The position numbers were made by a program, and so were the translations under genes. From the IMG/VR virus record IMGVR_UViG_2529292836_000013: DNA of 6,857 bases. One strand, written 5' to 3'. Shown here piece by piece: positions 988 to 2,036 of this stretch. The notes under the pieces were generated by a model. The model saw nothing but the letters and a program-made list of their open reading frames with translations. It had not been told where the DNA came from and did not search any database. Position 1 is the first letter of the stretch; each line of letters starts with the position of its first letter. The stretch is from a virus (lineage: Duplodnaviria; Heunggongvirae; Uroviricota; Caudoviricetes).

Positions 988-2036
988 GTGCGGGTATTAC
1001 TTCGACCTGTTCTGGTACCGGAACTCGGGCTGGTGATCGTTAAGCCGGGCCGTGAATCCATGCCGGTATTCCACAATACCCGGTTACTGGTGGAGCCGGA
1101 ACCGAAAAGCATGCGTAATCTGCCGTCCGGGGTCGTTCCTGCCGCTCGCCAGCCGCTGGTGGAAGACAAAACATTGCTGCCGTTTTTCAGTAACGCACGG
1201 GTGATTCGTGCTGCTGGTGGTGCTGGTGCATTGTCTGACTGGCTGTTGCGCCATATTAAATCCTGCCAGTGGCCACACGGCGATTATCATCACAGCGAAA
1301 CCGTCATTCACCGTTATGGTACCGGCGCAATGGTGTTGTGCTGGCACTGCGACAACCAGCTGCGTGACCAGACATCCGAATCACTCGAGCAACTTGCTCA
1401 TCAAAACCTGTCAGCATGGATGATTGACGTCATCGGTCACGCAATAAGCGGTACGCAGGAGCGTGAATTATCTCTGGCTGAATTATCCTGGTGGGCGGTC
1501 CGCAATCAGGTGGCGGACGCGCTACCGGAAGCGGTATTACGTCGTTCGCTGGGGTTGCGTGCGGAAAAATCCGCTCAATGTACCGTGAAAGCGACATCGT
1601 ACCGGGAGAGCAGACCGCCACCAGCATACTGAAACAGCGCACAAAAAATCTTGCGCCGCTGCCTCACGCCCACCAGCAACAGAACCCACCACAGGAAAAG
1701 ACGGTGGTCAGCATTGCCGTTGATCCTGAGTCTCCGGAATCTTTTATGAAACGACCTAAACGTCGCCGCTGGGTTAACGAGAAATACACACGCTGGGTGA
1801 AGACACAGCCGTGTGCGTGTTGTGGTAAGCCAGCCGACGATCCCCATCACCTGATTGGTTATGGTCAGGGCGGAATGGGGACAAAATCTCACGATATTTT
1901 CACGCTACCGCTGTGTCGGGAGCATCACAACGAGCTTCATGCGGATCCGCTGGCGTTCGAAGAAAAGCATGGTTCTCAGGTTGATTTAATTTTTCGTTTT
2001 CTTGATCACGCCTTTGCAACTGGCGTGCTTGGGTAA
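988..2036 (+). pseudogene. DUF968 / YdfU-like prophage gene, split by a frameshift into 988-1632 (frame 1) and a frame-3 continuation to 2036
   Basis: GTG start at 988 with GGAGG 4 nt upstream. The N-terminal part (MRVLLRPVLVPELGLV...) stops at TGA 1630-1632. The C-terminal part continues in another frame to 2036 and carries a Cys/His-rich motif (CACCGKPADDPHHLIGYG...CREHHNELH). Frame-1 tail and frame-3 head both look like out-of-frame junk, placing the shift near 1540-1600, around an A5 run at 1565-1569. Confidence 0.6.

Follow-up and report, generated by a model that had tools for sequence, protein, structure and literature searches.

Members of the DUF968/YdfU family have been placed in the same group of His-Me fingers (group 7) as DUF1364/YbcO, with RusA and Q as typical neighbours (PMC5714182). 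Among staphylococcal phages, phiETA Orf20 is a two-domain Orf(NinB)-HNH fusion with a C-terminal zinc-finger HNH nuclease, and the N domain of related two-domain fusions is NinB/Orf-like (PMC4118853). PhiNM1 Gp16 has recently been demonstrated to be a RecA-dependent nuclease (PMC12817073). In Escherichia coli K-12, YdfU (PF06147, DUF968) is encoded by the Qin cryptic prophage, in a neighbourhood related to that of the locus described here, with hokD upstream and the Q antiterminator gene downstream, rusA being absent there. Our literature search found no paper reporting an assay of YdfU.

The stretch of DNA analysed here (6857 nt in full, hereafter the window) corresponds, at 100% identity, to positions 2865042-2871898 on the minus strand of E. 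coli NCCP 13717 (NZ_CP115984.1), in a Qin/dicB-type lambdoid prophage. dicB, ydfA-D, repressor-like genes and a replication module are located upstream of the window, which itself carries hokD, a small ORF, a DUF968 gene, rusA, the antiterminator gene Q, two tRNA genes, iraM and a lysis cassette, followed by the terminase and portal genes; the order from hokD to Q (hokD, small ORF, DUF968, rusA, Q) is that of a nin-like early region. The TAA codon of the small ORF (708-986, 92 aa, PHROG 1212) occupies positions 984-986 and ends one base before the GTG of the DUF968 gene, suggesting that the two genes are translationally coupled. A promoter and terminator scan of positions 400-2500 gave counts no higher than those obtained with shuffled sequences. 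One of the two prophage tRNAs has a CAT anticodon and is called Met by ARAGORN and Ile by PGAP (the latter implying lysidine modification), and the other is Arg-TCT. A strong match to the sRNA family STnc100 (Rfam, 132 bits, gathering score 47) at 4334-4523 on the plus strand adjoins the minus-strand iraM (4549-4884) and overlaps a pseudogene annotated by PGAP as 'partial hypothetical'. At position 3311, the window has a private G, with an A in all six of the compared relatives, including the otherwise identical prophage of F5505-C1. The same prophage has an internal-stop pseudogene upstream and a truncated DUF1737 gene. The lysozyme gene (6275-6592) is cut by the IS66-family element ISCro1, the end of which fills positions 6594-6857; sister strains, such as F5505-C1, keep an intact 534-nt lysozyme gene, and this insertion is therefore specific to NCCP 13717.

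The DUF968 gene is divided between two overlapping ORFs (Table 1). Frame comparison shows that the downstream frame is shifted by -1 from that of ORF1; it is open from position 1482, the preceding stop being the TGA at 1479-1481. Both of the profiles examined are split across the two ORFs. Pfam PF06147 (DUF968; cut-off 27.8 bits) aligns its positions 1-39 with residues 160-198 of ORF1 (30.5 bits) and its positions 35-171 with residues 26-178 of ORF2 (216.9 bits for the C half), and PHROG 96 'HNH endonuclease' (334 positions) is divided into positions 1-192 and 196-333 (E-values of 1e-90 and 3e-77, respectively). The original prediction had read the two overlapping frames as one protein, and the divided profiles bear this out; the combined span, which it put one nucleotide short of the intact length, agrees with the ORF coordinates, and the 349 aa that it gave for K-12 YdfU is the length encoded by the 1050 nt of b1560. 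The alignment also places the shift exactly at the A5 run near which it had been expected: by comparison with the intact 1050-nt genes of EC21Z-014 (WP_001265033.1) and CFT073 (WP_001265034.1), the window contains the same DNA minus one A, with one and four substitutions, respectively, and the reduction of this run from A6 to A5 is the sole indel. The ORF1 product is wild-type through Lys194 and then continues with 20 out-of-frame residues. The uninterrupted frame expected of a functional DUF968/YdfU member is lacking, and the locus is a pseudogene member of the family; PGAP/RefSeq labels the interval 'DUF968 domain-containing protein, frameshifted' (NZ_CP115984.1 and NZ_CP024257.1).

Table 1. 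Coordinates of the interrupted DUF968 gene, its parts and associated features (window numbering, except for the related loci in the last line)
Feature	Position	Strand	Description
YdfU/DUF968-family pseudogene	988-2036	+	1049 nt; intact form 1050 nt (349 aa and stop)
ORF1, upstream frame	988-1632	+	214 aa; GTG start, TGA stop at 1630-1632
ORF2, downstream ORF overlapping ORF1	1491-2036	+	181 aa
A5 run, site of the 1-nt deletion	1565-1569	+	Ancestral A6, from the alignment and allele counts
Downstream frame, native residues 195-349	1570-2036	+	Variable linker and C-terminal His-Me/HNH domain
His-Me finger core	1812-1940	+	C276-x2-C279 ... H287 H288 ... C310-R-E-H313-H314-N-E-L-H318 (repaired numbering)
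C to T change, His292Tyr	1860	+	Lineage-specific; 3' of the break
Prophage tRNA genes	3385-3460 and 3561-3635		Between Q and the lysis genes
Broken related loci and proteins	L010 951-2001; L011 1189-2143		Proteins P0003, P0031, P0067, P0084

The K-12 ydfU gene has A6 at the same site. The window copy differs from it in having A5 and in being a pseudogene, with 86% nucleotide identity, and, once one base is restored, it encodes a protein of the same length, identical at 299/349 positions with no gaps. Partial or near-identical E. coli entries made up almost all of the best 120 matches of a word-indexed protein search, and homologue diversity was taken from an exhaustive representative search. 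This search, carried out with the N half against 1.84 billion proteins, yielded only 196 clusters at 50% identity, and at least 24 of the matches were single chains of 321-368 aa, 25-49% identical to the reference homologue P0121. In these 24 homologues, the N domain (1-190) is accompanied by the C-terminal HNH motif, and all 24 match DUF968. Among 50,697 phage records searched by tblastn, 173 hold at least 80% of a YdfU-type protein in one place, including Stx phages, Klebsiella, Yersinia and Vibrio phages, and P1, in which the protein is PdcB.

Queries of about 61-63 nt, differing in A-run length alone, were run against 5426 complete E. coli genomes, and exact matches were counted. A6 was found in 2120 records, A5 in nine and A7 in five. 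The A5 carriers are NCCP 13717, F5505-C1, ATCC 43886, 2014EL-1343-2, E2528-C1, HMDUC-17, LR883012, JCC-EE 7 and FELIX_MS533, and all those checked for annotation are labelled frameshifted. The original prediction had asked whether relatives share the frame break, and these nine records do, the 2120 others keeping A6. The nine carriers share one nearly identical prophage, with two sub-lineages. Across 4880 nt, seven substitutions and no indels separate the window from the prophage of JCC-EE 7 and FELIX_MS533, and 31 substitutions and the indel separate it from the nearest A6 prophage. Most parsimoniously, A5 has a single origin, but recurrence at this slippage-prone run is conceivable, since A7 and A8 alleles exist elsewhere.

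The same gene has been broken in other ways. The five A7 genomes, which are large and STEC-sized, are annotated as frameshifted, and an A8 allele of the same run is present in another lineage. In DEC5B, a G is deleted 15 nt upstream of the run, and the product is also 214 aa. A 312-aa form with an in-frame deletion, without the CxxC, is found on 998 contigs and is O157-type, and the gene of Salmonella phage ST64B is split into two ORFs. As ydfU-type genes have suffered repeated, independent breaks (A5, A7, A8, G deletion and in-frame deletion), these observations suggest that lysogens do not need them.

We consider it very probable that 988-2036 is a dead YdfU/DUF968 gene, located in a decaying prophage, in which replication slippage shortened an A6 run by one A. 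The ancestor of one prophage clade would have undergone this deletion in a single event, with inheritance thereafter. Translation from the GTG at 988 would yield 194 native residues, corresponding to the complete N-terminal domain, followed by 20 aberrant residues and the stop, and the linker and C-terminal His-Me (HNH) nuclease domain would no longer be translated in frame. As the break is situated where the N domain gives way to the linker, the nuclease domain is lost: the A5 allele removes the predicted catalytic domain. Such a loss would cost the lysogen nothing once the prophage was already defective. A true pseudogene was one of the options given in the original prediction, and it is the one favoured by the presence of A5 in nine complete genomes and by the exact 214-aa truncated product, which is called on 120 public contigs (NCBI, ENA and Logan assemblies).

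It is highly improbable that the A5 allele is rescued by programmed or compensatory -1 frameshifting at GA_AAA_T, with tRNA-Lys or tRNA-Glu slipping back and a useful fraction of ribosomes producing the 349-aa nuclease. The shift needed is indeed -1, and the exact wild-type sequence would be restored by slipping at GAA or AAA. The presence of GGGG at 1551-1554, 10 nt upstream of the slip site, is a weak point; the SD-like stimulator of dnaX sits at roughly such a distance upstream of its slip site. The A_AAA sequence fits Z_ZZN, the minimal -1 motif, and the tRNA-Lys of E. coli is shift-prone (PMC5009743). However, no slippery heptamer X_XXY_YYZ was found in the zero frame, where G_GAA_AAA fails and there is just the minimal tetramer, and no downstream stimulatory RNA structure was found in the 126 nt from 1555 to 1680 (-30.3 kcal/mol, z -0.49 versus shuffles), for which folding was not beyond that of shuffled sequences. 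Nor was a conserved frame break found among the relatives: it is restricted to one prophage clade, the frame being uninterrupted in the 2120 A6 records, the 24 homologues and the 173 phage records, and the independent breaks of the gene by G deletion, A7, A8 and in-frame deletion show plain decay. Furthermore, efficient transcriptional slippage requires roughly 9 A (PMC5009743), and A5 is far below this length. The ranking of a programmed frameshift as less likely in the original prediction is thus consistent with the lack of a heptamer, RNA structure or conserved break.

A related possibility is that A5 is a 'leaky' attenuated allele, with low-level -1 slippage on GA_AAA_T giving the wild-type 349-aa nuclease, for which cases of 'savior indel plus compensatory frameshifting' provide a comparison (PMC5009743). 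If this were so, the lysogen would keep a trace of nuclease activity and escape the cost of full expression. We regard this as no more credible than efficient frameshifting. A trace of full-length product from the A5 allele is nevertheless conceivable, because GA_AAA_T holds Z_ZZN and a -1 slip recreates the wild-type protein.

An error of sequencing or assembly, with a true A6 run and an intact gene in the source strain, is less probable still. The original prediction had listed this option, and the break does sit in a homopolymer, where long-read indel errors classically occur, but a five-base run is short for a systematic error and the same A5 is present in nine genomes from different laboratories, in sub-lineages with their own SNPs. 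T1860 (His292Tyr) is present in the ETEC sub-lineage only, being absent from JCC-EE 7, FELIX_MS533 and all A6 relatives, and G1710 is a derived SNP of the IS1-truncated A5 group. The occurrence of A5 in nine genomes of one prophage, together with the truncated product on the 120 contigs, therefore indicates a real, inherited mutation, and the A5 base call in the NCCP 13717 assembly is confirmed indirectly, via identical independent assemblies. His292Tyr was also considered as a sign of relaxed selection and was rejected: Y, W, N, S, V and T occur at this position in intact homologues, so the change is not evidence of decay by itself. The run does not have the features of a phase-variable (contingency) locus either, as the tract is 6 nt long and ON and OFF lengths are not intermixed within lineages, A5 being restricted to a single prophage clade and A7 to five STEC-sized genomes.

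Equally improbable as a sequencing error is the existence of two genuine genes, an N-domain protein and an HNH protein made by reinitiation, at GTG 1704 for example: ORF1 keeps a complete N-terminal domain that is predicted to fold confidently, GTG 1704 has AGGA 7 nt upstream and precedes the HNH core, some database relatives are about 200 aa long with the N domain only, and ST64B is annotated with two ORFs, but the short relatives examined are contig fragments, chimeras or proteins with out-of-frame tails, the split point is different in every broken allele, and the gene of the nearest relatives differs by the missing A and one substitution (EC21Z-014). Homologues that are genuinely two genes, which the original prediction had named as evidence that would count against it, were not found among the 24 diverse full-length homologues and the 173 phage records. 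These encode one continuous protein, and the DUF968 halves are therefore not two genes.

The locus is thus, very probably, an ordinary pseudogene of a known family, the frame break of which is already flagged in public annotation. It constitutes one more case of neutral gene decay in a cryptic prophage by slippage at a short homopolymer, and matters little as such. The A5 allele cleanly marks the lineage of a single prophage clade, found in O25 ETEC-type strains and a few additional E. coli. The intact family is of interest for its fusion of a 190-residue N domain with an HNH domain of the Ref/YbcO kind, the gene being a neighbour of rusA.

The architecture of the intact protein was modelled with AlphaFold2 on the full-length homologue P0121 (91% identical to the N half of the window protein), from the 24-sequence alignment. 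The model (mean pLDDT of 85.9) is confident for the N domain (1-190) and the C domain (250-345), which are joined by a linker of poor definition (190-250), and it is on this basis that the break in the window, after residue 194, is placed at the N-domain/linker boundary; a single-sequence AlphaFold model of the N half was unusable (pLDDT of 38.7). The N domain (residues ~1-190, window 988-1557) has two invariant residues, C93 and C118, in the 24-homologue alignment, and Q94, W119 and D122 are near-invariant, giving the motif CQ...LCWH[HC]DN. A Pfam scan at E<=10 revealed nothing credible for residues 1-160, and PDB sequence searches with either half gave no match, YbcO being the one match in a PDB profile search (E 1.2). 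The N domain (CQWPHGDYHH...CWHCDN) was evaluated as a second, degenerate His-Me/YbcO-like domain, a reading that obtained no support (local hhalign of N versus C columns of the 24-homologue alignment: probability 0.3%, E 0.21). We found no support for a NinB-like N domain in the YdfU-type family.

The downstream frame contains the predicted catalytic His and zinc-binding Cys/His residues (C276xxC279, H287H288 and C310xxH313H314..H318), in agreement with the HNH-like Cys/His motif noticed at the outset in the C-terminal half, which reads CxxC...HH...CxxHH..LH. C276, D303 and P308 are invariant in the 24-homologue alignment, and the C domain has the predicted beta-beta-alpha-metal fold of His-Me finger proteins, with a sub-threshold match to Pfam HNHc_6 (23.6 bits versus a cut-off of 26.6). 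The best structural match of the modelled C domain was phage P1 Ref (3plw, 8.3), with YbcO (3g27) at 6.5 and the HNH domains of IscB, Cap5 and McrA at 5-6.7. These matches agree with the published placement of the family in His-Me finger group 7 (PMC5714182).

P1 PdcB (AF234172.1, 88955-89875; match H180) and P7 upf95.7 are full-length YdfU-type homologues, PdcB matching 91% of the query at an identity of about 26%. P1 therefore carries both types, since Ref is a separate HNH protein. From homology and the predicted fold, we infer that the intact YdfU-type protein is a phage nuclease of the Ref/YbcO type involved in DNA processing or recombination, acting alongside RusA in lytic growth. Ref (PDB 3PLW), a RecA-dependent HNH nuclease, is the closest protein to the YdfU-type C-terminal domain. 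However, its N-terminal segment is unstructured and basic, whereas the YdfU type has instead a 190-residue N domain that is predicted to be folded. YbcO of DLP12 (DUF1364, PDB 3G27) is a 96-aa single domain without the N-terminal module. The two-domain layout is shared with phiETA Orf20, the gene of which likewise forms part of a temperate phage's early/recombination region (PMC4118853). PhiNM1 Gp16 is laid out like Orf20, and its C-R-E-H motif resembles the LCREHH of the window (PMC12817073); it may belong with the staphylococcal DUF968-type Orf(NinB)-HNH fusions.
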